Shown in pieces: positions 1,341 through 58,705 of a stretch of 64,000 nt of DNA. Source of the DNA: Octopus vulgaris (taxonomy: Eukaryota); the NCBI GenBank assembly GCA_951406725.2, contig OX597826.1, forward strand, positions 84,134,934 to 84,198,933. The letters are read 5' to 3'. Under the pieces are notes generated by a model. That model searched no databases. It saw only the letters and a program-made list of their open reading frames with translations, and was not told where the DNA came from. Made by a program: the position numbers and the translations under genes. How positions within the stretch are numbered: position 1 is the stretch's first letter; each line of letters begins with the position of its first letter.

Positions 1341-1409
1341 TTAACCCTTCTAGGCCTCAGTCCAATGACTGAAACAAGTAGAAAGTAAAAGTGTTATCTT
1401 ATATCGTTT

Positions 1410-1595
1410 ACTTGTTTCATTCACTAGACTGCGACCATACTGGGGCACCGCATCAAAGGTTTTGGTCAAATTGTAAACAAACCAACACTGGTTGTCAAGT
1501 GGTGGTGGGACACAGATACACACTCGCGCACGACAGGCTTCTCAGTTTTCGCCAACTCACAAGGCTTTTGTCAGCCACGGTTCCTATTATATACA
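1410..1595 (-). mobile_element. Degraded S1 SINE fragment
   Basis: ttacttgtttca...accatactggggcaccg...ggttgtcaag...actcacaaggcttt is the reverse complement of S1. Confidence 0.65.
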
Positions 1596-1608
1596 GAAGA
1601 CGGATCTT

Positions 1609-1864
1609 TTCCTTTTGAACGGCACTTTTCAACACAATTTCTAGTTAACTAAACACTTTTAAACTTTGTATACTGGTAGAATGTGTTTATAAAACATCAT
1701 TTTTTCTTGGCTTTATTGAGAAAATTCTATATGTTGTAACATATTTCGTCTTTAATTTCGAGCATTTTGGCAATTTTAACCAATCGCTGACATCCATTTA
1801 GGTAAATAACATTCTGTGCATAATGAATATGTCCCTCCTTTAAGAAACAGATTGGGCTTATTTA
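1609..1864. repeat. Unclassified interspersed repeat (MITE-like), interrupted by the LTR at 1865
   Basis: tttgaacggca...taactaaacactttt.aaactt.gtatactggtagaat recurs at about 24960-25260 and 25535-25740. Confidence 0.6.
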
Positions 1865-2405
1865 TGTACAGTCACCGGAAGTAACTTGCACGGACACCGG
1901 AAATACATCTGCCATCAACAGAGAAAACAAAGCAACTACCCCCAGCGACTTGCCTGACCTTTCATTGGACAAAAGCTACCTACCTGCCATTCTATTGGAC
2001 ACTGGCTAAACATCACTGCTGATATTTTTGTATAAATAGACATCATAAATCGCTGTAAAGCAGTTGGCCTTTTGGCACTGGACTGATGTAAATCGTGTCC
2101 CTTTCGCCTGCCACGCTCGCCACTCACGCCACCTCGAACCTTTGTACTGCCATTTCACGCCTGAAATAACTCGCTGTATAAACTTACACCTCTTATCTGC
2201 TAGTCATTTCAACTACTGCTTTCGTCTGTCCAGTTTTGCTGATTACGACCACAGTCATTCTCAGAGCTAATTCAAGTCTGATCTGAATGCGATAACAGTC
2301 CTTTTTAGGACTATTCTTGGATCGGATCTAATTGTGATAACCGTCCTTTTAAGGGCTACCCTCAGATCAGAACAGAAGTAGTGGCCAAGAATCATACCCG
2401 CTACA
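1865..2405 (+). mobile_element. 5' LTR of a Ty3/Gypsy retrotransposon
   Basis: TGTA...TACA termini; followed after 2 nt by a PBS and then gag-like sequence; left end less certain. Confidence 0.75.
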
Positions 2406-2407
2406 AT

Positions 2408-2420
2408 TGGTGACCCCGAC
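2408..2420 (+). promoter_or_regulatory. Primer-binding site complementary to the tRNA-Trp 3' end
   Basis: tggtgaccccgac is the reverse complement of gtcggggtcaCCA. Confidence 0.8.
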
Positions 2421-2454
2421 AACGAATCAAGCGAACAGCATATCAAGAATCAGC

Positions 2455-3800
2455 ATGGACACGCCAAAACCAACAACAGAGGCCGATATACCAACCACAC
2501 AAGCAGCTTTAACCAGGAAGGTCCCTGTTTTTTTGGTCCAACGACCCAGCCCTGTGGTTCGCCCACATAGAAGCACAATTTGCCGCGAATAGAATCAAGC
2601 ATGACTCTGCAAAACTCATGCACATCATTAGGTCAGTCCCACCAGAATGAATTAATGATGCGAACTACCACATCACAGCAGAAACGACTCAACCAACTTG
2701 TGTCTGCAGAAGAGTTGGGGGACAGAAAACTGTCCAAACTGCTGCGTAAAATGAGACAGCTGATGGAGGACCAACCGCTGTCAGAAGAGGTCCTGAAACA
2801 GCTTTATCTACAGCGCCTGCCCTTACCAATGCAGGGCATTCTGGCGTCGACCAACGACACAGCAACTCCGGAGGAACTTGCGCGTGTTGCAGATAGAATC
2901 GCTGAGGTGTCAAACCCCTTTCCTTCTGTGGCACAAATCAACCATCGGACGAACCCTTTCAAAGCGTCCTTAGACTCTACCTCCGGGATTGCAGAACTGC
3001 GAGCTATGATCAGAGAGCAGGCTGGTCAAATTAAAGTCCTCACAAACAAGCTAGAAAACTGGACCTTGGAAACACACTGGCGGCGCAGTAACAGTTCATA
3101 AAGTCCACTCACCGTCGAAGATCCAGAAGTCCCAGTCAAAATCGTGTGTCTGGCAACATCTGCTGGTATCACTCAGAATTCGGCGCACGGGCATCTAAGT
3201 GCAAGTCCCCGTGCTCTTTCCTGAATACCACCCAGGGAAATGGGTAGACCAGGGCCTAGCGACGACGTTCACCCCTGGTACTGAGAAAAAAAAATCATCT
3301 GTTTTTTATTAACGACCAAGCGACGGGTATCCGCTATCTCGTGGATACAGGAGCCCAGGTTAGTGTTATTCCTGTTTCACTAGTCTCGGGCAAACGACAT
3401 CCAACACCGTCCTTTCTGCAGGCAGTGAACCGATCGTCAATTCTGACTTTCGGTGAGAAATCACTGACCCTGAATCTAGGCCTGAGGCGTCGTTTCCAGT
3501 TCATTTTCGTCATGGCAGACCTACCAACCCCTATCTTAGGAACCGATTTTCTCCACCACTTCAACCTTCTGGTGGACATGAAGAACTGGAGGCTTATTGA
3601 CACCACCACAAACCTCACTGTGAGAGGTATATTTACCACGCAACCGACAGTGAGCCCTGTAATCTGTCAGTCAGAGCCTTCGCGTTACAACTGCATTCTC
3701 CAGAAATATCCAGACATCACTCGCCCGGTATGTAAAGATGGACCCATTAAACATCGTGTCACACATCACATCGAGACACGAGGACCACCCACAGCTGCCC
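2455..3800 (+). pseudogene. Gypsy gag plus aspartic protease (frameshifted)
   Basis: gag motifs FWSNDPALWFAHIEAQF and ELGDRK.SKLLRKM; knuckle CWYHSEFGARASKCKSPC near 3162-3214; protease YLVDTGAQVSVIP and PILGTDFL; HHIETRGPP. Confidence 0.9.
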
Positions 3801-4065
3801 GACAAAAGGTACGTCACGTAATACGATGTCAATGAACTGTTGAAAAGTTTGTGCAGCGTTGCGCAGACCGAACAGCATTCGCAGGAATTTGAATAAACCG
3901 AAGTGTTGTGATTGCCGTCTTTGGAATATCAGCAGGCTCCACATGTATCTGGTTATATGCCCGCACCAAATCTATCTTAGAAAAGATGCGTGCGCCTTGC
4001 AGGGGCAGAAAAATCGTGCAAGTGAGGTACAGGGTAATTATCGGGCACTGTGGTATTGTTGAGTG
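3801..4065 (-). pseudogene. Inverted Gypsy reverse-transcriptase fragment
   Basis: [29 protein letters not shown] and [11 protein letters not shown] on the strand opposite to gag/protease. Confidence 0.9.
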
Positions 4066-9319: not shown

Positions 9320-10684
9320 TCATGACTTCTCTTCTCTATGTGTTCGCTTGTGTACAGTTACATGGCTACTTTGTGTGAATGTTTTACCACAGATATCACA
9401 GCGAAATGGTTTCTCTCCTGTATGTATACGTCTATGTGCAGTTAAAGTGCTATTGTGAGAGAATGGTTTACTACAGATATCACAATGATATGGCTTCTCT
9501 CCTGTATGAACATATTTGTGACCAAATAGATGGATATTTTGAGAGAATGATTTACCACAGATATCACAACGATATGGTTTCTCTCCTGTGTGAATGCTTT
9601 TGTGTTGGTTTAGATTGCTATTCACTGAGAATGATTTACCACAGATATCACAGTGATATGGCTTCTCTCCTGTATGAACACGCTTGTGCGTACTTAGAGA
9701 GTTACTGTTAAGGAATGATTTACCACAGATATCACAGTGATATGGCTTCTCTCCTGTGTGAGCAAATTTATGTCGAGTTAGACTGTTAAATTGAGAGACT
9801 GATTTACCACAGATATCACACTGATATGGCTTCTCTCCTGTATGAGCAAATTTATGTTGAGTTAGACTGTTAAATTGAGAGACTGATTTATCACGGATAT
9901 AACATTGGAATGGTTTCTCTTCTGTATGAATACGCTTGTGTCGAGTTAGATTGCCATTTACAGAAAATGATTTACCACAGATATCACAGTAGTATGGCTT
10001 CTCTCCTGTATGTGTACGTTTGTGTAAAATTAAATCATACATCATAAAAAATGATTTGCCACAGATATCACAGTGACATGGCTTATCTCCTGTATGAATT
10101 CGTCTGTGTGCTGCTAAGCGACTGCTTGCACAAAAAGATTTGCCACAGATAGAACAATGATATGGATTCTCTCCCGTGTGAATAAGTTTGTGTTTACTCA
10201 AACTATCTGGATTAGAGAATGATTTACCACAGATTTCACATTGGTACGGTTTCTCTCCTGTATGGATACGTTTGTGTTTACGTAGGTTGCTATTTAGAGA
10301 GAATGATTTACCACAGATTTCACATTGGAATGGTTTCTCTCCTGTATGAATACGTATGTGTCTAATTAAAGCAGCTGTATGAGTGAATGATTTACCACAA
10401 ACATTACATTGATATGGTTTCTCTCCTGTATGAATACGTATGTGTCTAGTGAGAATGCTTTTTCCAGAGAACGATTTACCACAGATATCACACTGGAACA
10501 GTTTCTCTCCTGTATGAATATATGTATGAGTTATAAGGTCACCTTTTCCGGAGAATGACTTCTTACAGAAATCACATTGATAAGATGGGTTACATACATC
10601 CATTGGCTTCTCATCAATAAAACCAGTCCTTGTAGACTCTGATTCACATTTAATATTCTCCCCACACAATTCATTTTCCATCAT
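9320..10684 (-). CDS. Tandem C2H2 zinc-finger protein, 15 fingers (finger 9 has C->R), single coding exon
   Basis: Open ORF from ATG at 10684 (MMENELCG) with repeated CxxC-x12-HxxxH and TGEKP linkers. Confidence 0.95.
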
Positions 10685-11042
10685 ATTTCTTTCTTTCACC
10701 ACAATGTATGGATCCTTTTTTGCTTTTCAGTTTTAACTTTTTATTCCACACTGGTATTTATTGTGATATATTTCACTGAACTGGAATTTTTGTCAATATC
10801 TGAAGAGGCTGAGAATTCCTTTCTTATTCCAAATACATTTTAAGGTGAAAACCATCTTGAACACATAACAGACAGTGAAGTCAAGAAATATCACAAAGAA
10901 TTTCAGTTAAATCAAATAATTCACAGCAACTCTTCCACAGATATCTCTTCTGTATAAAAAACTTCCTTTCAACTTTCAAAGACAGTAATGTTGATGTATC
11001 TCTCGTATAAAAGTTTCTTTAATGCCACTGTAATTTAGATGT

Positions 11043-13074: not shown

Positions 13075-16000
13075 ATAGGTATAAAGTCTTCATAGGTATA
13101 AAGTCTTCCATAGGTATAAAGTCTTCTGGCAAGGTAACATGGATGGTGTAGGGGGTGTAGGCATTCTCCTTGCGGAGAAATGGGTGGATAAGGTCATAGA
13201 GGTTGTCAGGGTTTGCGATAGAGTGCTTAAGCTCAGTTTAGTCCTACAGAGTGGCACAGCTACGATTATCTCCGCCTGTGCCCCACATGATCAGAAGGAC
13301 CACTTTCATGATACCCTTCTACAGGCTACCTCAAAGACTAGTGGCAAGGACCTCATCTTTGTGGGTGGAGACTTTAATGGGCATGTTGGGTGGGAATCGG
13401 GTATCTTCACTGGGGTACACGGTGGCCATGGTATTGGCACCAGAAATGATGAGGGAACTATACTACTGGAATTCTGTGATGCATGTAACCTTTTAATCTG
13501 CAACACTAACTTCAGGAAGCCTGACTGCCACCTTATAACCTATCAGTCAGGAGACTCCGCTAGCCAAATAGACTTCATCCTCACCAGACAGCGGGATGCA
13601 GGGTCGCTCTTAAATACAAAGACCCTCCCGGGTGAAGAATGTATCCCTCAGCATAGGCTAATCATTAGTGACTTTAAGCTTGAGGCCAGAAGGACTCCAA
13701 GAAACAGACCAATCCAGAAAAGAAGGATTTCGAAGCTAAAGAACCCTTCACATGGTTAGAGATTTAGGGACATCCTCATCAAGAAATTTGATGAGAGGGA
13801 GGAGGAGCTACAGACGTCGGACATAGAAGGTAGCTGGAAATTCCTACGGGACAGCTTGCTGAGTGCCACAGACCAAGTCTGTGGATGGTGCAAAGTCCCT
13901 TCCAGACCTAGAGTTACGTGGTGGTGGAATAGTGCAGTAGACAAAGCCATTAGTGCAAAGAGGCCTGGAAAGCCTGGAGGGATGGGGGTAGCAGGGAACT
14001 GTACCAGGTAGCCAAAAGGGAGGCTGGGCGGCAGGTATACATAGCCAAAGATGTAGCAGAAAAGAAGAAGTTTGCCAATGTCCAGCAACGTGAGGACCAA
14101 AGAACTGAGGTATTTTGGATTGCCAGACAGTGTATGAGAGAAAATAGTGATGTTACAGGAGAGAAATGTGTCCGCATGGATGATGGGGCACTTGCTTTTA
14201 ATGTTGGTGAAAAGAAAGAGGCTTGGAGAAGCCATTATGAAAGACTGCTGAATGTGGAGAATGAATGGGAGGAGGAGAGCCTGCCAAATGTTGACCCAGT
14301 AGAGGGACCAGCTATCCGAATAGACAGCTCCCTTGTAGTTAAGGCAATTAAGGGTATGAAACCAGGTAAAGCCCCCGGCCCATCAGGAATCACTGCTGAG
14401 ATGCTTAAAACAGCTGGTTATGTGGGCTATGGCCTAGTCACCCGCATTGTAAACCAGGTAGTTCATAATGGAGTCATACCCAATGACTGGCGTAGCAGCA
14501 CCATAGTCAACTGCTACAAGGGTAAGGGTGATGCTCTAGATAGAAATAACTACAGGGGTATTAAACTGTTGGATCAGGTGATGAAGGTCACAGAGAGGGT
14601 CATAACCCATCTCATTAGGGAGAGAATTTGCTTAGATGAGATGCAGTTCGGTTTTGTGCCGGGTAGAAGCACCACTGATGCTATATTCCTGGTCCGACAA
14701 CTGCAGGAGAAGTACCTAGCTAAAGATAAACCCCTCTACATAGCTTTTGTGGACTTGGAGAAAGCCTTTGACAGGGTCACCCGATCCCTTATCTGGTGGT
14801 CGATGCGGAAACTGGAGATTGACGAATGGCTAATAAGGGCTGTACAGGCCCTATACAGAGAGGCTGTCAGCGAATATAGTGAAGAATTCCGGGTAGAAGT
14901 AGGTGTACACCAAGGCTCAGCCCTCAGTTCCCTTTTATTCATCATAGTCCTCCAGGCAATAACAGAGGAATTCAAAACGGGTCGTCCCTGGGAGCTCCTC
15001 TATGCTGATGATCTGGCTCTCATAGCAGAATCACTACCGGAACTAGAAAAGAAATTTCGGGTGTGGAAGCTAGTTTTAGAATCAAAGGGCCTTAGAGTAA
15101 ATGTAGCAAAGACCAAAGTTATAGTAAGCAGAAAGGCGAACTCAGCACACACCCCTCGGGCAGGTGGCCCTGCTCGATCTGTAGGAAAGGTGTAGGTAGA
15201 AACTCCATAAGATGTACCCAGTGTAAGCTATGGACGCATAAGAGGTGCAGCAACATCAAAGGGAAATTAACTGATAAGATAGCTTTCATGTGCGGCAGAT
15301 GCACAGGGACAATAGACACCACAGATACTCAGAAAACAGATTCCATCACACTCCAGGGGAAGAAACTAGAAGTAGTTGATAGTTTCCGCTACCTGGGTGA
15401 CCAAGTTAGTAGTGGAGGTGGATGCTCAAAGAGTGTCACCACTAGAATACGAATAACCTGGGCAAAGTTCAGAAAGCTCTTACCCCTACCGATGACAAAG
15501 GGTCTCTCGCTCAGAGTGAAAGGTAGATTGTATGACGCATGTGTGCGAAGTGCCATGCTTCACGGTAGTGAAACATGGGCTGTGACTGCAGAGGACATGC
15601 GTAGACTTGAAAGGAATGAAGCTAGCATGATCCGCTGGATGTGTAATGTCAGTGTGCGCGCACGACAGAGGGTAAGCACCCTGAGAGAAATGCTGGACAT
15701 AAGAAGCATCAGATGTGGTGTGCAAGAGCGACGCTTGCGATGGTATGGTCATGTACTGCGGATGGATGAGGAGAGATGTGTGAAGAAGTGCCACTCCCAA
15801 ACAGTTGAAGGTATCAGGGGGAGAGGTAGACCCAGGAAGACATGGGATGAGGTAGTCAAGCATGACCTCAGAGCATTGGGCCTCACTGAGGCAATGGCGA
15901 AGGACCGAGATCTCTGGAGATATGCTGTGACTGCAAAGACCCAGGCTGCTTCTTGCACCAGTTCCGCATAGCCCTTGCTCATTCAAAGTACCTTGGATTC

Positions 16001-30400: not shown

Positions 30401-30488
30401 ACGCCCTGAAGAGATTGTGCTAATAATGCATAAGTTGTTGTATGCAACAATATGCAATTAATGTAATCGAATCACATGTGTCAGAAAA
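30401..30488 (+). ncRNA. Degenerate type I hammerhead motif
   Basis: CUGAAGA (30406), stem II gauu.../...aauc, GAAU instead of GAAA, palindromic cacaugug, UC; stem I unpaired. Confidence 0.4.
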
Positions 30489-32246: not shown

Positions 32247-32330
32247 CTAGCAGAGATACCCAGCGTTGTCCGGTTACATTCAATAGAAGAATTAGTTTTT
32301 TCTGTTATATATATATATATATATATATGG

Positions 32331-32381
<51 letters not shown>

Positions 32382-34052
32382 TATATGTATGTTAATATAA
32401 ATACATGAAAGTACATGAAGTTTGTTAAAAAAAGGGGATCATGTATATACCTCCTGGCTGTTGAGATTATAACACCTCGTTGTAAACAATGTTCCTTGTT
32501 TTTCCTTGTGGAGCATATACAAAAAGGTTTCTTTTGGTTCCTACTCTTGAGCAGCCAACATACAGTTGCCTATGCGAGAAGCAGGGCTCTTCCAAGAGAA
32601 GACCAGCTACAGAGAGGGTTTGACCCTGAGATTTGTTAATGGACATGGCAAAGCTGACACGAAGGGAGAATTGCAGTCTTCTGAATGTAAATGGAATTTC
32701 TGCTCCTGATGGAGTAAGAAGAAATCTTGGAATAAAGACGTCATCACCTTTTCCACATCCAGAAAGAATGATCGCCTTGATAACGTGTGATATCATTTTC
32801 TTTATCACCAGTTGTGTTCCATTGCAAAGTGTTGGTGGTTCCAGATTGCGGAGTAGCATTACAGGAGTTCCAACTTTAAGTGGTAATATGTGTGGAGGTA
32901 GTCGAGGAGGCTCCAGTGAATTGAGAAATTCAGGAGGATAGTTCACAACTTCATTTATATCCGGAATTGTATCAACAGACTTGTAAGTGTGTATAGTGCC
33001 GGGAAGAGAATGCATTAGCTGTTGATTAATTTTGTTAACAGTGACGTTTTTTGGAGCTAATATTGCTCTTTCACACTGCCAATTGTGATTTTGGTAGTTT
33101 TGTGTGAAGTTGGGAAAGACTTTGTATTTGAGGTCATCTACAGAATTAACAACAGAGGAAAATGACCACACTTCCATTTGTCCTGCAGCATCGAGAGGCA
33201 TCTTGCCTTCACCAAGTGTCAAAATGTCCTGTGCAAACTTTGTGGACATTTTGTCGCCGTGTAGCTGAGCTCTCATGTTAGTGGTGAGACTAAAGATTGT
33301 AACATGATGCCACAGGGTAGAGGACTTTAGGCATGCTTGAACTTCATCAGCTCTAGTGCCTTTCGGAATGACAGGAAGAGTTTGCCTGAAATCACCTGAC
33401 AACAGAAGCGTTACACCTCCCATTGGAGCCTGACAGTCTCGGATGTCTTTCAGGGCTCTATCTAATGCTTCCAAAGCTCCCTTGTGAGCCATAGTGCACT
33501 CATCCCAGACAATTACATAAACACATTTTAAGTACTTGACCCTGATCAGAGCTTTTGTTGATGTTGCATGAAGGCATTTCGGATGCTGCTAAATTGAGAG
33601 GGAGTTTAAAAGTTAAGTGTGCTGTCCTGCTACCGTGTAACAAAGTAGCTGCAATGTCAGAGGAGGCTACAGCTACTGCAATGTCCTGATGCTACCTAAC
33701 TTCTGCAAGGAGAAGCTTTGTAATAAATGTTTTTCCTGTCCCTCCAGGAGCATCGAGGAAGAAGATTCGTCCCTCGCGTTGGCGTACACTGTTAAGAATA
33801 GTTCTGTAGGCCTGCAGCTGGTCCGGAAGTAATTTAGGCTCATTTTCAACAATGTACTTTGAAAGCACTTGAGTGTCGTAGGTTGTTTCACGAATGACAG
33901 CAGTAGGAAGGCTATTTGACCCTGACCTGAATGCTTGTGGCAGGCCATACGTCGACAATTCATTTCCACCCAGTTTAGCAATTCTGTCTTCAACGTCAAT
34001 GAGTGTTTTGTTATAGATTTCATTGCTGATACCCTCCATGTCAGGATAGAGC
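32247..34052 (-). mobile_element. Helitron 3' portion with PIF1-like helicase (frameshifted)
   Basis: DAPGGTGKT, DECTMAHK, GDFRQTLPV, ERAILAPKN, LCNGT, FAMSINKSQGQTL; 3' hairpin plus CTAG|T end at 32247. Confidence 0.93.
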
Positions 34053-35776: not shown

Positions 35777-38700
35777 ATTGATTGATTCTGATTGATTGAT
35801 TCTAGTTTCAGCTCACGAGCTGTGGCCATGCTGGGGCACCGCCATTTGGTGTTGCTACATGGTTTTACTTCACGAATGCTTTTTAGCAACTGCCATTTGG
35901 TGCATGAGAGAGTTCGATGCAGCTGCCCTCATCTGCACCTCCTGCCGTGAAGTTGGTTCATCTGGGATACCTGACAAGAAGAGATCCAGTTTCATTTTAA
36001 AAACATCTGCATCCACCCCATGCAGGTTTCTTAGGTCCTTCGGGAGGATATTGAAGAGCTGTGGGCCTCGGAAGCCCAGGCTATCACAGTATCTTGTCCT
36101 ACATCTTGATGGCAAATTTGGAGTCCAAGGCACCACGCAGTGGCGCCCAGTTCTGGCATTTGTGTAACTCTCGATGCCAAAGTTTGGGACAAGTCCTTCC
36201 AGGATCTTCCAGATGTATATTATGGCATATCTTTCTCGCCTATGCTCCAAGGAATAGAGTTTTAATCTCTTGAGTCTTTCCCAGTAGCTTACATTCCGCA
36301 CAGAGGCTATCTTCTTCGTGTAGCTACGTTGGATCGCCTCAAGTTCTGTGATCAACTTGACACTGGATGGTGACCATAGCTGAGAGCAATAGTCAAAATG
36401 GCTTAGGACAAGTGTCCTCCAGAGGACCATCATGGTTTCTTGTTCTCCTGTTCTAAAGGTTCTGAGAATCCATCCGGCCAGTCGTCTACATTTCATTGCC
36501 AATTTAGCAACATGTACACGAATGGTTGCGTCATCACTCATGTAAATACCCAGGTCACGCACTGATTGTGCCTCTGGGATTGCAATTCCTCCGGGTCCAG
36601 TGTATTCATTGGGTATTGCATTTAGTTTTGCATGCTGATAGCATAAAGCTTGAAACTTTTCAGCATTGAACTGCATGCTATTCTTTTCAGCCCACTTGTA
36701 TATTTTGTCCAGCTCACATTGCAGGCGTTTAGTGTCCTCAGGGTTCTGTATTGCCTGTGAAACTTTTGTATCATCTGCATAACTTTTGATCGTGGTTCTC
36801 TGCATGGCTGAGGGCATGTCTGAGAGGGCCATTATGAACAGTAGTGGTCCCAAAACAGTGCCCTGCGGAACACCACTCACTACTACCACCTGACTTCTAT
36901 CTTTCAGAAAGTCATGAAGCCATTCTCCCAGTTTTCCAACTATGCTAAGATCACGCAGTTTGTGACATATCATTCCATGATCGACTTTATCAAAGGCCTT
37001 TGCAAAGTCGAGATATATCACTTCCACATTTGAGTGGTTGAGCAGTCATTTCAGCACCCAGTCATAGTGTTGTAGGAGCTGAGTTAAGCAGCTTCTTCCT
37101 GGTCGGAAACCATGTTGGGTGTCAGGCAGCAAGTCATTTTCTTCAAGGAAGGTGATCAGTTTCCTTCTGACTATTCGTTCCATGACCTTGCTGATGTGTG
37201 AGGTCAGAGAGATAGGTCTGTAGTTCTTGGCCTCCGCTCTGCTACCTCCTTTATGAATAGGGCATATTTTACCTTCCTTCAGTTTTCTTGGAAGTTTGCC
37301 AGCTGCAAGGAAGCTCTGAAAGAGGAACTGCAGTGGTCTTGCTAGGACTCTCTTACATACTTTTAGGAGGATTGCCGGGAATCCATCGGGGCCAGTAGCT
37401 GAGTCTGTTTTCATTTCATCTATAGCCTTTCTTACATCGTCTTCCTTTATATCCATGTAATCTATCGTCGCCGCCTCTGATTTTATATCTGCAGTGGTAA
37501 AGAAGTCAGTTGGATTGTGATTTGGAAATGCCCAAGGGGTGGAGTGAAAACACTCTTGAATTGCTCATTCAGTATTTCACTTACCCTCATTGGTTTTCCT
37601 GTGAGTGAGCCATCCTTTTCAACGAGTGGCCCTATCCTACAGTGCACCGTAGCTATTTCTTTGGCATACCTGTAGAAAGCTCTGGGGTTAGATTTTATGT
37701 TGTCTATAGCCCAGGCTTCTTTGTCTGCTCTTTCCTTTTCATGGGAGAGTTGCAGACATTTTTCAATTTCCAACAGTTTTATTTTCAGGCGGGACTTTTC
37801 ACTGCTTTCAATTTGTTTGTTTAGGCGATTTGAAATTTTTGTACGCCGTCTCATTAAAATTTTCCTCTCTCTGGGGATTTTGTTCTTGTGTACAGTGGCC
37901 TTTCTCTCTGGGACACATTTGTAGCATATGGCTTGCATTACAGATATGAATTGTTGAAGTTTCACGTCGATGTCTGGCGAGGAGAGACATTCAGGCCAGT
38001 TTTGTTTGAGAATCTCTTTCTCAATTTGTTTCCAGTTTGCCTTATGGAAGTTCAAGCTAGAAAGATTCTGAGGGTTTCTTGTAGGCTGCATGTCCATGCT
38101 TTCCTTTGGCCCGTACATGGTTGGCTCTACCATGTTGTGATCCGAGAGTAGTGTCGGTGTCACTTTCACATTATGGATGAGATCCATATTATTTGTGAAG
38201 CAGAGATCCAGTGTGTTACCTGCCCTGGTTGGTTGGAGTATTACTTGCTCCATGTACAGGGTGTTGATGAGGTTCAAGAGGGACGTCGCCTGTCCTCGTT
38301 CACATCTTGTCATTCCTGGGAGAGAAAGACCCTCGGGCCATCTGACATTGGGTAGATTGAAGTCTCCCATAAGTACACTTATGTGTTGTTCTAATGTGAT
38401 TAGAACTTCTATTTTTATAAGGCAGTCTTCAAACTTGCCTACATGGCTTGGGGCATCTGGAGGGCGATATGTAGCACACACAACTACATCAAGTTGCCTT
38501 ATATGTACAATTAGTGTGTCACACACCGAGTTTGAGTATGACAAAAGGACTTGGGGTGTGAGGTCCTCACGGATGTACATAGCAACTCCTCCATGATTCC
38601 TTTCTTTTCTGTCGGTCCGTAGTACAACATACTGTGGTATGTGTAATTCCGCATCTGCTATGTCCGGTTTCAGGTGCGTTTCCGTAAGTGCTATGCATAA

Positions 38701-39632
38701 GGCTTGATTGCATGCAACAAAGTCTCTCAAGAACGGGATTTTTGTCCTGTTACTGAGTGTTTGCAGTCCTCTGATGTTCAGTAGGAGCATCGAGGTGAGG
38801 TGTATGCTGTTGCCGGCGGTGTCCACCTTGGGTCTATTTGCTGTGGTGGTCTTGTATATTGTGGGTAGTCCCATCTGCGAGCTTGGGTTTGATGAAGCCA
38901 GGTTAGCTGCTGTACAATTTTTGTGCCATGCACAAAAAAGATTCTTGTTCAGCAGCTGCCCTTTCAACATCATGTTGGCGGTTTGTGGCACGCACCACAT
39001 CTGCGTACCTCCGTTTTGGGGCAGGTGGTGCGTGGTCCATCCCTTTTCCTTTTGTTAGTTTGTTTCTGATCTGTTTCGTGTCTCTGCGGCAGGGTCCCCG
39101 ATGTACAAAACGGCAGCCTGCACCTTCCTCTCCATGCCAGCAGGTACCTCTCAGGTAGAACCTACACACCCGTGTGCGCTGTTTGTTTCCATCCTTTTTG
39201 GTATATGGATAGTCAGTTTTACTTCTATTCTTGGCTGTTTCATTTTTTGGTTTTGTTTGAGTTTTTCTTTTAGTTTTTCCTCCTTTTATTTCTTCTTTGG
39301 GTTCTTCATCTCCATGGCTTTTGGTGCTGGTAGGAGCACTTGCACTTGGGTTTCCTTCCCGGGCAGGTTTCTCACTTGAAACCTCTTCCCGGATGTCTAC
39401 TAGGTGGGGGTGACTTCTTTCATCAGCACCCGTGTCTCTATCCTTGCCATCTTTACTTTGTTCGTTCTCATGTGAGATCTCATAAGTGCATAGGAGCGTA
39501 TAAACTCCTGCTTCTTCCGCTTTATCTGAGCTATTGTCCTTTTATAACTACTGCTCTTCAGCGCAGCTGTAATTATATTGTTAGGATTATCTCCATCGGC
39601 GCATTTCGTCACGTCTCCAGGTTCTGGACATG
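35777..39632 (-). mobile_element. Near full-length CR1-clade LINE (family A)
   Basis: ORF1 with CRFYLRGTCWHGEEGAGCRFVH; ORF2 [40 protein letters not shown]; frameshift near 37490, one nonsense codon at 37046; (aatc)n tail. Confidence 0.95.
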
Positions 39633-43964: not shown

Positions 43965-44670
43965 ATGACCCTCTCCGTAACCTTCATTACCTGATCCAAC
44001 AGCTTGATACCTCTGTATTTATTTGTATCTAAAGCGTCACCTTTACCTTTGTAGCAGTTGACTATTATGCTGCTACACCAGTCATTGGGTATGACTCCTT
44101 CGTGTATCAACTGGTTAACTATACGGGTGACTAGGCTATAACCAACACTGCCAGATATTTTGAGCCTCTCTGCAGTAATTCCTGATGGACCTGGGGCTTT
44201 CCCTGTCTTCATACTTCTAATTATCTTATCTACCAAAGAACTGTCAACTCGGATAGCTGGTCCCTCAGTTGGGTCGACATTCGGCAGACTCTCTTTCTCC
44301 CATTCATTGTCTTTATTCAGCAACCTTTCATAGTGGCGTCTCCAAACCTCTCTCTTTGCAGCCACATTTAGCGCAAGTGAACCATTATCCATGCGAACAC
44401 ATTTCTCTCCTACCACATCACGATTCTCTCTCACACACTGTCTTGCAACACGAAATATCTCAAGTCTTTTGTCCTCACAGCGCAGAACATTGGCAAATTT
44501 TTTCTTATCTGCTTCTCCTATGGCTAAATAAACCTGCCTCCTAGCTTCCCTTCTGGCAGTCTGACACACTTCACCCATATAGTTAATCAGGATATATAGA
44601 AAGGTATTATACCCAATGACTGGCATAGCAGCATTGTAGTCAACTGTTATAGGAAGACAGACGTTAAATG
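43965..44670 (-). mobile_element. RTE LINE fragment (same family as 13074-16540) followed by a plus-strand RTE piece and tail
   Basis: DVVGEKCVRMD...GKAPGPSGI...[12 protein letters not shown]; plus-strand IPNDW piece and acgttaaatgatg at 44580-44675. Confidence 0.85.
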
Positions 44671-44945
44671 ATGTTGATATATTTTTTAGTATACATAACT
44701 GACTTCTACACGTCCTTCATGGATGATTCTATGATCCACAAAAACAGATGAATTATATCCAAAATGCTAATGTTGCTGCTACCAAAAGGTATTGAGGACT
44801 TGATGCTTTTTGTTTCAGTAGAGTTGCCCTTCCAACTATAATCATCCTTATTTCTTTTAAATCTCTGAATTATCACCATTATCCCATTGCATGACATTTT
44901 GAGTCTATTGGGTACCTGGAAAATGAATAAAACCAGTCGTGTGTA

Positions 44946-45440
44946 TCTCTTATTATAAAAGGCAGATTTTATCTGCCTCCCTTTGGGAGTTATACAAATC
45001 TACAATATAGGATTTCTTCAATTACAATTTACCTTGCATTTTTAAGAGTACAATGCATTGCGTCATGCCAGCTCCAGTTTTTAAAATTTAAACTCCAGTT
45101 AAGCAAAATTTACAGAAAACTCACATTCTGGTGTGTGTGTCAAATGCTTTTCTTAGTCTGGTTTACACCACACGCAAACGCACACACACAGTGGGCAACG
45201 AATAAAATGAAACTAATTCACTTACTGTAGTGAGTGATTCTTTCACTCTGCCTCCCACTTCTTCTTTCCACACAGACACGCAAATATATAAATAAAATTG
45301 TAAGCTAACGTGCGTGTGTGTGAGTGGGTGGGTGTGGGTGTGCGCGTGTGTGTGTGTGTGTGTGAGGGTGCGCGTGTGTGTGTGTGTGTGCGCGTGTGCG
45401 TGAGTGTGTGACAGGAAAGTTTTTTTACGACGAATATAAT
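44946..45440 (+). mobile_element. Helitron 5'-end fragment
   Basis: a|TCtcttattataaaaggcagattttatctgcct; 44948-45250 is nearly identical to the reverse complement of 53100-53402. Confidence 0.7.
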
Positions 45441-45462
45441 ACCTATATCCAAGTAGCAGAAA

Positions 45463-45946
45463 GATAAGACAGTAAGGTGTGATTTGAGGAAGATTTGGCT
45501 GCTATTTCTACCATGTCTAGCTGCCATGTAGGGGTCTCCCTCATAGGCTCATACATACATATATATATACATAGATAAGACAGTAAGGTGTGATTTGGGG
45601 GAAATTTGGCTGCTATTTCTACCAGGTCTAGCTGCCATGTAGGGGTCTCCCTCATAGGCTCATACATACATATATACATAGATAAGACAGTAAGGTGTGA
45701 TTTGGGGGAAATTTGGCTGCTATTTCTACCAGGTCTAGCTGCCATGAGGGGTCTCCCTCATAGGCTCATACATACATATATACATAGATAAGACAGTAAG
45801 GTGTGATTTGGGGGAAATTTGGCTGCTATTTCTACCAGGTCTAGCTACCATGTAGAGGTCCCCCTCATTGGCTCATATATATATATACATACATAAGACA
45901 GTAAGGTGTGATTTGAGGGAGATTTGGCTGCTGTTTCTACCAGGTC
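45463..45946. repeat. Minisatellite, unit about 107 bp, 4.5 copies
   Basis: ataagacagtaaggtgtgatttg units start near 45463, 45574, 45681, 45787 and 45892. Confidence 0.95.
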
Positions 45947-46310
45947 TGTTAGGCCTTCTCATGTAAACTCAAGCTTTCTCATGCCTTCAACATATGACCA
46001 AAGCAGAGAATGTATTCTTTTATTCTTCTGCTTTTTCCAGCCATTGGTCTGTGGCCATGCTGGGGCAATGCCTTGAAGAATTGTAGTTTAATGAATCAAC
46101 TCCAGTTTTATTTTTGTAAGCATTGTACTTATTCTATCTGTTTCCTTTGTCAAACCACTAGGTGACAGGGATGTAAACAAACCAACATTCGTTATCAAGC
46201 AGTGGTGGAGGACAATCACAAGCACAGACACGCACACACATACACACACACATACATGCATACACATATACACACATACATACATATATATATATATGTG
46301 TATATATATA

Positions 46311-46569
46311 TTGCAGCGTGGAAGGTGTTTGTAAGCCATTTAAGAAACACACAAAAACCGTTACATTCACTTCAACATTTAAATTTAATTTGCCAAAATA
46401 TTTTCGTCGCTTTGAGACCGCCACCTGTTCACTGACAAAAATATCGTGCTAACAGGTCGCGGTCTCAAAGCGACGAAAATATTTTGACAAATTAAATTTA
46501 AATGTTGAAGTGAATCTAACGGTTTTTGTGTGTTTCTTAAATGGCTTATAAACACCTTCAACGCTGCAA
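46311..46569. repeat. Near-perfect palindrome (arms about 119 bp), probably inverted Penelope-like terminal repeats
   Basis: ttgcagcgt...cctgtt | 21-nt spacer | aacagg...acgctgcaa. Confidence 0.85.
46389..46439 (-). ncRNA. Non-canonical type I hammerhead-like motif (G3:C8 core)
   Basis: uuuguca GUGAACA g guggc-ggucucaaa-gcgac GAAA auau UU uggcaaa; 7-bp stem I. Confidence 0.55.
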
Positions 46570-46641
46570 CTGTTTTCGTTCCAGCACACGATCTCAGATC
46601 AAGTCACTTGCTATGCAAGTACATCTCTGTAACTATATATA

Positions 46642-46680
<39 letters not shown>

Positions 46681-46743
46681 TGGTAAAAACAGTAAGATAA
46701 CAAAAGAAAGAAAGAGACCTCAATATTATGTAAATAGAGGAAA

Positions 46744-47134
46744 TCTTTATAGATAAAAGTGAGGTTGTGTGTCTGTCTCCTACGATTTAGATTCCTAACT
46801 ACTCCCACATTTTGCGGTGCAGTTTAACCAAAACCGGGTATCTTATAGTCGTGATTCATATCGAGACCGTCTGGGTATTAGCGCGCGTCTACGATGAGTC
46901 TACGATTTATAAAAAAATTTACCATCAATTTTTCCAATTTTTAATACATTTTTGACATATATAAGGGAAGTAACTCTCTAAAATTATTAAATCTCAGAAC
47001 GTAAAAAGCTACAGTAACACCCCTCCCCCTTTGTGGTTAGCCATATTGAGATGGCTATTATACTTTACATCTCTAAAAATGCTTATATAATTATTTCCCT
47101 TACAAACCCGAGCAACGCCGGGCGATACTGCTAG
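46744..47134 (+). mobile_element. Complete non-autonomous Helitron (391 bp)
   Basis: A|TC start, cccgagcaacgccggg hairpin, CTAG|T end, no TSD. Confidence 0.9.
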
Positions 47135-47147
47135 TGTGTATATATAT

Positions 47148-47462
47148 GAGTGGCTGTGTGGTAAGTAGCTTGCTTACGAACCACATGGTTCCGGGTTCTA
47201 TCCCAATGCATGGCACCTTGGGCAAGTGTCTTCTACTATAGCCTTGTGAGTGGATTTGGTAGACGGAAACTGAAGGAAGCCCGCCATGTGTATATATATA
47301 TATATATATTTGAGAGTTTGTGTATGTATATGTTCGTCCCCACCAACATTGCTTGGCAACCGATGCTGTGTTTACTGCAAAAGAGACCGATAGAATAAGT
47401 ACTAGGCTTACAAAGAATACGTCCTGGGGTCGATTTGCTTGACCAAAGTCGGTGCTCCATCA
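47148..47462 (+). mobile_element. S1 SINE with internal deletions
   Basis: Matches 29078-29516. Confidence 0.85.
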
Positions 47463-47938
47463 AAAAAGAGAGAAAAACACGTTTTCACTCTCTAAATATC
47501 GACTTCTTTCATAAACAACCAAGTTGATTTGTTATTGGGCTCCTAGACTGAACAATTGCATGATCTTGTATGGATCTGAGAGTAATTTGACTGCTATTTC
47601 TAGCCACCCCAAGTTAGCCTTGTTAATCATGTGAACGTCTAAAGAACTGAAAGTTATTTTAACAGTTGACAAACCAAATTCTAGTCAAGAACTCGTTTAA
47701 AAATTGCTGAGCCTTAACAGAAACCATTAACATTTGAAGTAATAGACTTATTTTTAAAGGTGTGTGTGTGTGTGTGTGTGTGTGCGCGTGTGTGTGTCTG
47801 TTTGTCCCCAAACATTGCTACACAACGGATGTTAGTCTGTTTACGTCCCCATAACTTAGAGGTTCAGCGAAAGAGATTGATAGAATAAGTACTAGGCCTA
47901 CAAAGAATAAGTCCTGGGGTCGATATGCTCGACTGAAG

Positions 47939-47990
<52 letters not shown>

Positions 47991-51887: not shown

Positions 51888-52748
51888 CTAGCAGAATTGC
51901 CCGGCGTTGCTCGGGGCTGAATTGCTTGAAAGTACTGTTAATGATTGCACTGAATTATGATGATTATTCAGGCAAATATTGAAATAAGCTTACGGTGGGA
52001 GATAAGGACTTAACGCCAAACGTGTGCCATTGCATTGTTTTGGGGGAACCAAATTTCTGATGAGCATTATAGGGGCACTAACTTTAAGTTTGAGAAAGTG
52101 TGGTGGTAGTCCGGGGTGCTCAAAGGAATTGAGTACCCCTATTGGATAGTTGATGACGTCCTCTGGGTCAGGAGTTGTATCGATAGACTGATATACATCG
52201 ACTTCCCCAGGAATGAGTTTTAGCATTTCATCATTAATATGGTGAACAGTTTTATTCCTCGGGGCCAGTATAGCCTTTTTGCCAATCCAATCCATATTCT
52301 GATAATTAGCTTGTAAATCTGGGAACACTGCATCTCCGAGATCAGAAGGCGTCTTAACAATGGTACAAATGGAATCGATGGCAATATTACCATTTTCATC
52401 CCCTGGTATTTTGCCTTCGCCAAGTGCAAGGAGAGTGTGAGGAAATGCTGGTGATGTGATATTACGTCGCATATGAGCACGCATATTGGTGTGAAGTTTG
52501 AGAGTTACTTCCGTTTATTTTTAAAAATATGCATTAAAATGGAAAAAAATGATGGTAAATTATTTGTAAAATCATAGACTCATCGTAGACGCGCGCTAAT
52601 ACCCAGAAGGGCTCGATATGAATCACGACTATAAGATACCCGGTTTTGGTTAAACTGCATCGCAAAATGTGGGAGTAGTTAGGAATCTAAATCGGAGTAG
52701 ACAGACACACAACCTTTCTTTTATATATAAATACATACATACACACAC

Positions 52749-54166: not shown

Positions 54167-56457
54167 AGTCTAAACTTCCATAAGGCAAACTGGAAGAAGA
54201 TCAACGAAGAGATCCGAAAACATGACTGGAGTGACTTCATCACCACACAAGACACCAACACACATTTCCAACATTTCATGACAACAATACAGAACATATG
54301 CCATAAGTTTGTCCCGGAGAAAAAAGCCAGCGGGCATAGGAACGTTATTCCCAGAGACAGGAAAATACTTATGAGGCGAAGAGCTAAGCTCTCGAAGCAA
54401 CTGAACGCACGGCAGAGAAACAATGAGGGACTCCACCTGAAACTTTTTGAAACGGAAACTGCACTCAAACTTTCCTATGAGAAGGAGAGGGCAGAGAGAG
54501 AAGCCAGGGCCATAGAGAATATTAAAACAAACCCTAAAGCCTTCTTTAAATTTGCGAAAGAAACCACCTCGGTACACTGCAAGATTGGCCCACTCTTTGA
54601 TAAAAAGGGCTCTCTAACTGAGGACCCCCAAGGGATAAGTGAAATACTAAAGGAACAGTATAAAAGTGTGTTCACATCCCCTCTGGGGCACATGCAAATC
54701 ACAAACCCAGAAGTTTTCTTTGATGCCACAACACTCCAAAACCAAACAACAACCATCGACCACATAGACATAACAGAGAGGGATGTAATATCTGCCATAG
54801 AAGAAATGAGAATAAACTCAGCTGCTGGACCAGATGGATTCCCAGCAGTCCTCCTAAAACATGCAGGCATGCCCTAGCGGGACCACTGAAGAAGCTCTTC
54901 AGTGGTTCCTTGGCTAACGGTAAACTGCCCAGGGCGCTAAAAGAAGGCACCATATGCCCTATCCACAAAGGAGGGAGTAGAGCAGAGGCCAAAAACTACA
55001 GGCCAGTCTCCCTGACGTCACACATAAGTAAGGTCATGGAACGAATCGTCAGAAAAAAACTGATCACGTTCCTCGAAGAAACTAACCGTCTCACTGACAC
55101 ACAGCATGGCTTTCGCCCAGGAAGAAGCTGCCTTACGCAGCTGTTACAACACTACGACTGGGTACTGAAACAACTACTGGATCGCTCACAGGTGGATGTG
55201 GTATATCTCGACTTTGCGAAGGCCTTTGACAAAGTCGACCACGGAGTGATATGTCACAAATTACTCAGACTCGGCATAACAGGAAAAGTAGGTGAGTGGA
55301 TACATGACTTCCTGAAGGACAGAAGCCAGATGGTTGCAGCCAATGGAGCCCTCTCGGGAAAGACACCAATAGCAAGTGGGGTGCCACAGGGCACAGTCTT
55401 GGGACCCTTGCTGTTTTTGGTGGCGCTCTCTGACATGCCCTTGGTAGCACAAACAACATCCCTCACTAGCTATGCTGATGACACAAAGGTAGCACAGGCA
55501 ATCAAAAACCCAGCTGATGCTGACCTTTTACAACAAGATCTGGAAGCCATATACAAATGGGCTGAAGACAACAACATGCAATTTAATGCTGGTAAATTTC
55601 AAGCCTTACAATATCAAGCTGTAAACACATATACATTACAACACAACTATACTGGTCCAGGAGGGATCGAAATCCCAGTATCGAAATCAATACGGGACCT
55701 GGGGATAGACATGAGTGACGATGCATCTTTTTCTTCACACATCGCGAAGGTGGCGACAATGTGCAGACGACTCACTGGCTGGATCCTGAGGACATTCCGG
55801 ACAAGAGACTGCGAGACCATGTTGACACTATGGAGGACATTTGTCCTAAGCCGCCTGGACTACTGCTCCCAACTGTGGTCACCGCATAGTGTCAAACTAA
55901 CCACAGAGCTTGAGACAATCCAAAGACATTTCACCAAGAGGATTTCCACCATGAAAGAAAAGAACTATTGGGAGAGGCTTAGGGAACTCAATTTGTACTC
56001 CTTGGAACGAAGACGAGAGAGATATGCAGTGATATACATATGGAAAATCCTGGAGGGACTAGCACCAAATTTTGGAATTGAGAGCTGTTCCAATCCCCGT
56101 ACAGGACGTCACTGTGTGGTGCCAAAGGTCCCGTCTTCCACATCCAGGGTAAGGAGCAGATACTGTAATAGCCTGGGGTTCAGGGGCCCTCAGCTTTTCA
56201 ACAAACTGCCAAGAAAACTAAGAGATCTACATGATGCGGATGTGGACATTTTCAAAAAACATCTAGACAAGCTGCTTTCCGGGATCCCAGATGAACCCAC
56301 TGCAAGGTACGAAGGTAACCTAAGGGCAGCAGCTACAAACTCTCTCTTAGATCAGTGGCCAGCCACGGCAAACTGGACTTAGAGAGGGTAGCAACAAGGG
56401 CGGTGCCCCAGCATGGCCTCAGCCGGATGGCTGAAACAAGTAAAAGAGTAAAAGAGT
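54164..56457 (+). mobile_element. 5'-truncated CR1-clade LINE (family B), one frameshift near 54865
   Basis: [30 protein letters not shown], open to the stop at 56382; tail (aaaagagt)2. Confidence 0.95.
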
Positions 56458-56470
56458 ATATCTTTATGTG

Positions 56471-56509
<39 letters not shown>

Positions 56510-56546
56510 TTATGTGTATATGTATATATATATATATCTTTATGTG

Positions 56547-56583
<37 letters not shown>

Positions 56584-56590
56584 TTATGTG

Positions 56591-56635
<45 letters not shown>

Positions 56636-56642
56636 TTATGTG

Positions 56643-56693
<51 letters not shown>

Positions 56694-56713
56694 TATACAT
56701 CATATATATTCAT

Positions 56714-58705
56714 CAGTCCCATGAAAAGGAGAGAGCAGATAAAGAAGCTTGGGTAATAGAAAATAGAAAATCAAACCCTAAAGCTTTCTTTAAGTTTGCC
56801 AAAGAGACAGCCACAGTGCACCAGAGAATAGGACCTCTCTTCCAAAAAGATGGCTCTCTCACAGGAAATCCCACGAGGATAAGTGAAATACTGAACGAAC
56901 AGTTCCAAAGTGTGTTCACTACACCTCTAGGACACAGGCAAGTAAACAACCCAGAAGAATTCTTTGCCACTTTACCAGCGGCCAAAGAGACAAAAATTGA
57001 GTACATCAACATCGAAGAAGATGATATCACACTAGCCATTGATGAGATTGACACAAACTCAGCTGCTGGACCTGATGGATTCCCAGCGATCCTTCTCAAA
57101 TCGTGCAAACGAGCCCTTGCAAAACCACTACAGCTTCTTTTTCAGAGCTTTCTTGCAAGTGGTAAGCTCCCAGTCAAACTGAAAGAGGGGGTAATATGCC
57201 CTATCCATAAGGGAGGTAGCAGAGCAGATGCTAAAAATTATAGGCCTATCTCTCTGACCTCACACATCAGCAAAGTCATGGAACGAATAGTCCATAAGAA
57301 ACTAATCATGTTCCTTGAAGAAAATGACTTACTGTCTGACACCCAGCATGGATTTCGACCAGGTAGAGGCTGCCTAACACAGCTCCTGCAACACTATGAC
57401 TGGGTGTTGAAACAGCTACTAAATGGCTCAAATGTGGATGTAATATATCTTGACTTTGCAAAAGCCTTTGATAAAGTCGACCATGGTATGATCTGTCACA
57501 AACTGCGTGGTCTCGGCATAGGCGGGAAACTTGGAGAGTGGCTGCACAACTTCCTAAAAGACAGAAAACAGGCAGTTGTGAGCAATGGAGCCACCTCCAG
57601 GGAAACGCAAATAACAAGCGGTGTCCCACAGGGCACTGTCTTGGGGCCACTGATGTTCATAGTGGCCCTTTCAGACATGCCTTCAGTTGCTACGATGACC
57701 ACCCTTGCTAGCTATGCAGATGACACAAAAGTCTCCCACGCAATACAAAACCCTGAAAATATTGCGCATCTGCAACATGAGCTGGACACAATATACAGGT
57801 GGGCTGAGGACAACAACATGCAGTTTAATGCAGGTAAGTTCCAGGCCCTGCGCTACTGGCACACAAAGGTAAATGACGTGCATACTGGATACACTGGCCC
57901 AGGAAGAATTGCAATCCCTGAGTCAAAATCAGTGCGTGACCTGGGCATTGACATGAGCAATGATGCATCTTTCCAAATGCATATTGCTAATCTGGTGATA
58001 AAATGCAGATGGCTAGCTGGATGGATTCTCCGAACTTTCAGAACAAGAGAGAAGGAGACACTGATGGTCCTATGGAAAACATTTGTCCTCAGCCGCTTGG
58101 ACTACTGCTCCCAACTTTGGTCACCACACAATATAAAACAAACAGCAGAACTCGAAGCAACTCAGAGAAGCTACACAAAGAAAATCGTCTCAATGCGAAA
58201 TGTCAGCTACTGGGAAAGACTGAAGGTATTAAACCTCTTCTCCCTGGAGCGGAGGCAGGAGAGATATGCAGTGATATACATCTGGAAAATCCTGGAGGGT
58301 CTTGTCCCAAACTTTGGCATTCAAAGTTACTCCAACCGCAGAACGGGGGCTGCTGCGTGGTGCCAAGGATTCCAACATCACCATCAAAATACAGGTCCAG
58401 ATACTGCAACAGCTTGGGTTTCAGAGGACCACAGCTCTTTAACATCCTCCCTAAATGCCTGAGAGACTTACATGGTGTGGATGTGGGTTTCTTTAAAACT
58501 AAACTGGATCTCTTCTTGTTGGGAGTCCCAGATGAACCTACCTCACGACAGGAGACACGGATGCGGGCAGCAGCATCGAACTCCCTTGTTGATCAAGTGC
58601 CACGTATCAGAGGTGGATTCACAAACTAGTGTAGCTCATTCAGCGGTGGTGCCCCAGCATGGCCGCGGCCTTCGGGCTAAAACATTTTTAAGGATTTAAG
58701 GATTT
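56714..58705 (+). mobile_element. 5'-truncated CR1-clade LINE (family C), one frameshift near 58345
   Basis: Same RT motifs; 3' ggcc-ttcg-ggct stem-loop and (aaggattt)2 tail. Confidence 0.95.

Follow-up and report, generated by a model that had tools for sequence, protein, structure and literature searches.

Within a long palindrome of the Octopus vulgaris genome, the minus strand of one arm reads as a hammerhead ribozyme whose core carries G3 and C8 in place of the consensus C3 and G8, and the other arm is antisense to it. Is this motif a ribozyme, is the antisense arm part of it, and how did the structure arise? The locus lies in a stretch of 64,000 nucleotides, here called the window, which is the last 64 kb of its contig (OX597826.1). 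The explanation in which we place good confidence is that two truncated pseudo-LTRs (pLTRs) of a Penelope-like element (PLE) were inserted head to head into a TA tract of a non-autonomous Helitron and were amplified with it, that the pLTR hammerhead is of the dimer type, likely active, with C3:G8 swapped to G3:C8, and that the window copy itself is predicted to be inert.

The first-pass annotation of the window described a minus-strand type I hammerhead with a swapped G3:C8 pair, an extra G and a palindromic stem III, with cleavage predicted between 46396 and 46395. Parsing of the motif agrees with this description and places the predicted cut at the same position on the minus strand:

46389 to 46439, minus strand: type I minimal hammerhead with a G3:C8 core, an extra G at 9/10, palindromic stem III and U17 (from parse, fold and descriptor scan)
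46439 to 46433, minus strand: 5' arm of stem I, 7 bp including one G-U pair
46432 to 46426, minus strand: core GUGAACA, with G3 at 46432, and C8
46425, minus strand: extra G
46424 to 46406, minus strand: stem II and its loop, with a G.G mismatch in the window copy
46405 to 46403, minus strand: GAA
46402 to 46397, minus strand: palindromic AAUAUU (stem III)
46396, minus strand: U17
46395 to 46389, minus strand: 3' arm of stem I

U4 G5 A6, A9, G12 A13 A14, the A15.1-U16.1 pair, H17 and three stems are all present in 46432 to 46396. Two things are absent from the window motif, the literal consensus letters C3 and G8 and an intact stem II; the plus-strand arm has the perfect stem II, GUCGC/GCGAC, that the annotation had read there. 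With these two exceptions the motif would work, judged by its structure, like a dimer-type PLE hammerhead. In the minimum free energy (MFE) structure of the isolated motif, stems I and II form, although the window fold is weak (z-score of −0.84 versus −3.66 for the intact family motif). A descriptor with any Watson-Crick 3:8 pair, which the first-pass annotation had proposed, finds one match in the window and none in 100 local dinucleotide shuffles at equal stringency; an earlier, stricter descriptor that allowed no stem II mismatch missed the motif. The annotation's warning that CUGANGA searches would miss the swapped motif is also well founded, and Rfam gives no hammerhead among 150 of its 151 matches to the window at E≤1, which are mostly microsatellite noise.

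Three other hammerhead-like sites had been put forward as showing further 3:8 pair types within the window. The sites exist, but they are weaker than stated; all are decayed, and any homology to the G3:C8 family is at most putative:

4902 to 4850 (core 4902 to 4896), minus strand: decayed hammerhead-like, with U3:A8, an extra G, a 4-bp stem II and a stem I of only 3 bp
49812 to 49710 (site 49805), minus strand: decayed hammerhead-like, with C3:G8, a stem I of 2 bp and a long loop II
30406 to 30485, plus strand: decayed hammerhead-like, with C3:G8 and a long loop II, U in place of A15.1, and stem I missing

Sites 4902, 49805 and 30406 alone are no covariation evidence and are repeats of other types. 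Other features of the window are a C2H2 zinc-finger array on an 84-bp repeat (9320 to 10726, minus strand), remnants of LINE-type endonuclease and RT (13085 to 15195, 35870 to 39054 and 54724 to 58462), and a fragment of a retroviral-type protease (3260 to 3835).

The origin of the motif is evident from its relatives elsewhere in the genome. A 20-mer of the intact G3:C8 core and intact stem II has 5,777 exact genome matches, and its reversed control has none. Leaving positions 3, 7 and 8 free raises the number of matches to 6,424, of which 5,777 are G3/A7/C8, and the first 100 listed of the 6,424 include 10 variants, all of them single changes and none C3:G8. The first 30 loci of this family (family A) are short retroposed copies, often in TA tracts, with two alternative 3' ends ∼60 nt apart, and targets that are not microsatellites have duplications of 11 to 14 bp. 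In longer copies the hammerhead repeat lies ∼1.0 kb after the stop of open frames of 646 to 1,025 aa, and at loci L118 to L121 and L133 to L135 it is found downstream of the ORFs and in inverted pLTRs around them. The ORF family has a YVDD RT motif (locus L096), a Cx3CxxC linker, a Cys-rich linker between RT and EN being one criterion for the Neptune and Nematis clades of PLEs, and a GIY-YIG domain (PF01541; E values of 1.2e-4 and 2.6e-5) in two of the four proteins scanned. Pfam RVT_1 has no score on the fragments scanned, and RT is called from YVDD and from homologues annotated as RT-domain proteins. The hammerhead repeat is thus linked to RT and GIY-YIG ORFs and is therefore the pLTR of an endonuclease-bearing PLE, in keeping with the first-pass assignment to the Penelope-associated, dimer-type minimal hammerheads. 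No family A copy was found in which the pLTR runs into a whole ORF, a read-through pattern giving 13 matches, and BLASTP of the family A pLTR peptide against the family B N terminus gives no alignment; in the sister family B, overlap of the pLTR with the ORF start is seen directly.

Several further features of family A are of note. Many copies (L059 and L061 to L090) begin ∼20 nt before the core, immediately 5' of stem I, and longer copies have a branch-point-like motif, a pyrimidine tract and AG at that start (651 pattern matches), which may, on sequence grounds, be a splice acceptor like that of the pLTR intron of Drosophila Penelope. The repeat also has an antisense resemblance to Pol III A and B boxes. 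A search of sequencing runs returns 21 rows, 20 of them with half or more of the query words, under four organism labels and with no RNA run listed; contigs of four runs show no variant at 5% or more at positions 3 to 9 or G12 to U17, and their variation lies at loop II and CpG sites. Two other interpretations of these repeats were rejected: a 3.4-kb tandem at C2:171.24 Mb is a duplication without a cognate ORF and not a tandem PLE, and the short copies are solo or head to head, not the tandem head-to-tail units of a non-LTR retrozyme. An unrelated PLE (L208, and L209 at 973 to 3765) has an asparagine-rich stretch and RT-like and GIY-YIG-like frames read by eye; its head-to-head inverted repeat bears GTGATCA and gives no clean hammerhead fold.

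Homologous PLEs vary at the 3:8 pair itself. Family B has 54% protein identity to family A, is its sister in a quick tree (SH-aLRT 100), and has a hammerhead motif with C3:G8 and an extra G at the homologous place (3,564 pattern matches). Copies of family B with intact 1,312-aa ORFs, many of them near identical, and one metagenomic relative have C at core position 9 (L122:6225, L131 and L137:2497); older B-lineage copies have A9. A profile search finds 62 related PLE loci in metagenomes, of which 37 were scanned outside the ORF with no 3:8 pair, stem I or stem III palindrome required. Eleven of the 37 have an extra-G candidate 99 to 385 nt after the ORF match, and position 3 forms a Watson-Crick pair with position 8 in all 11 (five C:G, five U:A and one A:U). 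Two candidates without the extra G, upstream of the ORF, have no Watson-Crick 3:8 pair, and there is no candidate at the other 24 scanned loci, many for lack of flank. Two further C:G cases were picked by eye, and the metagenomic candidates are few (13 in the 37 loci scanned of 62, plus these two). A looser scan of both strands at all 62 loci gives 10 matches, 9 of them with a Watson-Crick 3:8 pair, compared to 1.0 per shuffled replicate, and a search that used a distant homologue as query returns families A and B only among 43 scored matches. Side observations in the metagenomic PLEs are a natural A3:U8 candidate at a single locus (L175:1710) and a candidate with U15.1-A16.1 (L136:4973).

The octopus genome itself also contains more than one state. 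The shared context with positions 3, 7 and 8 free has 214 genome matches, and a hand count of the first 100 gives 64 G:C and 8 C:G, with 12 C3 and 10 G8 in all, for which ∼1.2 joint occurrences are expected. Seven of the eight C:G loci match family B (one over a short stretch only) and none matches family A; many G:C matches in that list are ordinary family A copies with CpG decay. An older wave, about 68 to 76% identical to family A, keeps G3:C8 with a different N7, and its best-preserved copy (L240/L263) has a stem II of GUCAC/GUGAC, as in old family B copies, and a stem III of AAUU. A 13-mer pattern for the older copies is not enriched (223 matches versus 611 in the reversed control), and the older-copy set is therefore limited to loci with downstream homology.

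In an alignment of 18 motifs, positions 3 and 8 pair in all 18 (10 CG, 5 UA, 2 GC and 1 AU), and the 3:8 covariation score is 0.965, versus 0.215 shuffled and at most 0.164 slid; the aligned families are related, the shuffle figure is not a probability, and the rows for L263, L276 and L279 were chosen with the 3:8 state known. U4, G5, A6, G12, A13 and A14 are invariant in these motifs, although the scans required these letters, and the stem II pairing is partly circular because stem II was required too. The extra base and the stem III palindrome are kept, with the sequence of the palindrome changing among relatives. What is conserved at 3:8 is the pair and not its letters, as the active hammerhead conformation predicts, and the covariation argues for a selected ribozyme with predicted self-cleavage. 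Two first-pass expectations, that the core and stems would be conserved with covariation in the family and that 3:8 tolerates compensatory swaps, are supported by the thousands of exact core matches and by the occurrence of C:G, U:A, A:U and G:C among homologous PLE motifs.

Short-stem-III hammerheads have reportedly been described by Lünse et al. 2017. Comparisons with the literature refer here to the covered portions of the papers cited by PMC number. According to Cervera and de la Peña 2014 (PMC4209133), PLE hammerheads are marked by an extra 9/10 base and a palindromic stem III, include U3-A8 cores and pairs on opposite strands, and show little cleavage in vitro, dimers included. The octopus motif is similar to these metazoan examples in its type I fold within the pLTR, the extra nucleotide between 9 and 10.1, G10.1-C11.1, palindromic stem III, frequent U17, mostly dispersed truncated copies and some opposite-strand pairs, although its stem I is 7 bp rather than 4 to 5. 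The natural U3-A8 swap is known in that set, whereas the octopus-related PLE group has all four pairs, including G:C and one A:U; G3:C8 is absent from the portions of PMC4209133 covered, in which the 56 representative cores all begin with CUGA or UUGA. Natural U3-A8 is also present in the hammerheads of Perreault et al. 2011 (PMC3088659), and the covered part of the main text contains no C3G, G8C or G3-C8 string; the octopus-related PLE group shares with the Perreault 2011 and Lünse 2017 hammerheads the natural 3:8 covariation to U3-A8 and, by prediction, the dimer cleavage of PLE-associated hammerheads. In PAc, a Poseidon PLE of Anolis, an engineered C3G/G8C change partly rescues the hammerhead (Frangieh et al. 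2024, PMC11167929), and what is an engineered mutant there is the natural state of thousands of octopus copies. [quoted passage not shown] The literature searched contains no natural G3:C8, only engineered cases or C3-G8 and U3-A8. Natural G3:C8 is thus provisionally new, as a modest but real variant, as are the four-way 3:8 covariation and the carriage by a Helitron.

The conservation of the pair bears on a rival explanation, that the G3:C8 motif descends from a hammerhead but has lost all or nearly all of its catalysis, surviving because a protein binds its RNA fold or through chance retention in a small number of master elements. PLE insertion in vitro does not need cleavage, as ribozyme mutants of the reconstituted PLE still inserted and no RNA-seq ends were present at the cut site (PMC11167929), and therefore conservation might reflect a protein-bound RNA fold and not chemistry. 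Naiads also multiply without canonical hammerheads (PMC8557442), and family B, although C at position 9 is tolerated there, reaches its 3,564 pattern matches. Furthermore, the swap needs a mismatched, presumably inactive intermediate. However, positions 3 and 8 make a tertiary contact in the active conformation, and across families their pairing is conserved while their letters are not; G3:C8 also outlasted changes in N7, stem II and stem III over two waves of amplification, and the six invariant core letters point the same way, with the reservation that the scans required them. Loss of activity is thus an unlikely explanation, and a likely active parent hammerhead is preferred. In the computed dimer, the double hammerhead is 0.6 kcal/mol below two monomers and about 4 to 5 kcal/mol above the dimer MFE, and the gain is marginal.

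The hammerhead of the window is in one of two unequal arms, which differ at 6 of 120 positions (46311 to 46430 versus 46450 to 46569):

46311 to 46449, minus strand: left arm, a 5'-truncated PLE pLTR ending at the short (tail-less) 3' end
46451 to 46632, plus strand: right arm, an inverted pLTR from A6 to the tailed (long) 3' end, with a tail of ∼60 nt; antisense to the hammerhead of the left arm
46541 to 46633, plus strand: 31-codon open frame in the pLTR and tail, a putative stub of the PLE ORF start

The right arm extends 63 nt past the palindrome, to 46632, and because it starts at A6 and lacks the 5' arm of stem I and G3-U4-G5, it is no ribozyme itself. The first-pass annotation regarded the palindrome as sequestering the ribozyme in long transcripts, and as a folding prediction this holds: the predicted hairpin is at −206.5 kcal/mol (z-score of −27), and the probability of stem I pairs inside the palindrome is about 1e-42. 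The window copy is accordingly predicted by the fold model to be fully sequestered and inert.

Comparison with other copies, many of which are armless, gives no support to the further suggestion of an antisense arm built into the ribozyme. Inverted 5'-truncated pLTR copies with a tail at one end only are a described PLE pattern (PMC3846280; PMC8557442), and self-priming on an antisense template was proposed for such palindromes by Arkhipova 2013 (PMC3846280). The octopus copies share with the EN+ PLEs of Arkhipova et al. 2013 (PMC3846280) and Craig et al. 2021 (PMC8557442) the head-to-head 5'-truncated copy, the one-sided tail, target duplication and microsatellite bias, and they differ in that the window insertion is reduced to a 322-bp stub and that one tail per pair is a rule without exception among the 26 classifiable pairs. 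Family A has many head-to-head copies, with junctions that vary and spacers of 0 to 5.6 kb. Among 28 independent pairs, from which duplicates and two Helitron copies were excluded, 26 have one tailed and one tail-less arm and two are unclassifiable, and none is long-long or short-short. Arms without a partner in the loci examined number 38 (21 tailed, 14 tail-less and 3 other). The antisense arm is thus the known inverted pLTR-plus-tail insertion of PLEs and not a regulator, and burial of the ribozyme in read-through RNA is, from the folding model, probably a by-product of the insertion.

Helitrons begin with 5' TC, end with a 3' hairpin and CTAG, and insert between A and T. The palindrome lies inside an element of this kind:

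44946 to 47134, plus strand: non-autonomous Helitron (∼2.19 kb) with the palindrome as cargo, with 5' TC, a subterminal hairpin, 3' CTAG and an A/T target
45443 to 45992, plus strand: ∼107-bp tandem repeat, five copies, inside the Helitron, with the number of units varying between Helitron copies
47107 to 47134, plus strand: 3' hairpin and CTAG terminus of the Helitron

All 30 of the 30 best genome matches have flanks beyond the palindrome in common, out to the 44946 to 47134 unit, and all 30 end in the hairpin and CTAG followed by T. The 5' TC end is present in 29 of 30 with a 2-nt ambiguity, several copies are in tandem with junctions, and in 22 of the 30 the flanks are unlike those of the window. 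Since the copies share kilobases of flank to the Helitron ends, all derive from one insertion. A junction specific to the Helitron has 622 exact matches, with stem II intact in 99 of the first 100 listed, and the window copy is one of 24 or more identical copies that form a sub-lineage marked by the stem II mismatch. The high copy number of the palindrome (at least 622 sites) comes from Helitron capture and therefore reflects amplification of one old PLE insertion, not selection on the ribozyme. The 5' TC, 3' hairpin and CTAG, A/T target, tandem copies and internal minisatellite are as in non-autonomous Helitrons with captured fragments; what sets this one apart is its cargo, a PLE palindrome that contains a ribozyme motif. 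No description of a PLE palindrome as Helitron cargo was found in the literature on Helitron, Penelope and octopus, and hammerheads and ribozymes are unmentioned in the covered part of the main text of the octopus repeat annotation (PMC13282606). Elsewhere in the window, PIF1-type helicase remnants (32467 to 33588 and 51990 to 52514, both minus strand) adjoin similar Helitron-like 3' ends at 32274 and 51915. Seven other loci (L001, L002, L004, L008, L010, L022 and L023) share the window flanks outside the Helitron, over 44568 to 47972 and beyond, and the window region is therefore part of a larger duplicated block.

This history leaves little room for an antisense arm that evolved as a regulator, silencing the ribozyme in long transcripts and freeing it in short ones. 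In favour of a regulator, the arm sequesters the motif in silico and one and the same palindrome has become fixed in at least 622 copies, but these copies share their flanks to the Helitron ends and count as one insertion. Across the PLE family the position of the junction differs from copy to copy and 38 arms are partnerless in the loci examined, the sub-lineage of the window has a broken stem II in 24 identical copies, and no promoter-side pLTR sequence is left upstream of the window copy. An evolved regulator is thus largely refuted already and highly improbable. A MITE or fold-back DNA transposon, with a chance likeness to a hammerhead in its long terminal inverted repeats, would account for the long inverted arms, TA-rich flanks and many near-identical copies, but it is refuted, with a negligible probability, by the asymmetry of the arms (one is tailed), the presence of the arm sequence both solo and downstream of RT and GIY-YIG ORFs, the target duplications of 11 to 14 bp, and identical copies that end at the Helitron termini and not at the palindrome ends.

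The locus is thus a passenger fossil in a Helitron, and its palindrome is a known type of insertion scar. Under the preferred explanation of a head-to-head PLE insertion, the parent ribozyme would be slow in cutting PLE transcripts and would do so in dimeric form or assisted by the PLE protein. A PLE protein was shown to cut both strands of the target and to extend them, with the tail delimited by two neighbouring RNA sites at which RT begins (PMC11167929). Each nicked target strand may thus have primed reverse transcription at a different one of these two sites, which would generate one tailed and one tail-less arm meeting head to head; self-priming on an antisense template is an alternative route. 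With the pLTR promoter lost, presumably only read-through RNA would cover the window copy, forming a hairpin of ∼120 bp that would bury the ribozyme, and the insertion, having landed in a Helitron, would have spread without selection on the ribozyme.

A broader interpretation, for which the chances are about even, is that one widespread PLE group sampled all four Watson-Crick 3:8 pairs and that the natural G3:C8 hammerhead of its octopus branch stayed active over two or more waves of amplification. Since every 3:8 swap involves a mismatched state, the group would be a natural experiment in which cleavage lapses briefly yet is reselected; CUGANGA and Rfam censuses would be missing whole ribozyme families, and the one-tail rule would be a trace of priming from both ends at two fixed sites on the RNA. 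If natural G3:C8 cleaves, the set of natural 3:8 pairs is complete, beyond the C3-G8 and U3-A8 of the papers covered, and standard descriptors and Rfam miss thousands of ribozyme copies in one genome. The Helitron cargo seeds hundreds of predicted long RNA hairpins throughout the genome, and an effect of these on RNA editing or silencing is speculation. The one-tail rule, at 26 of 26, is a genomic test of the model of priming at two start sites, and the sister families, which differ at positions 3 and 8 in nearly the same scaffold, provide a ready test of whether PLE hammerheads must cut.
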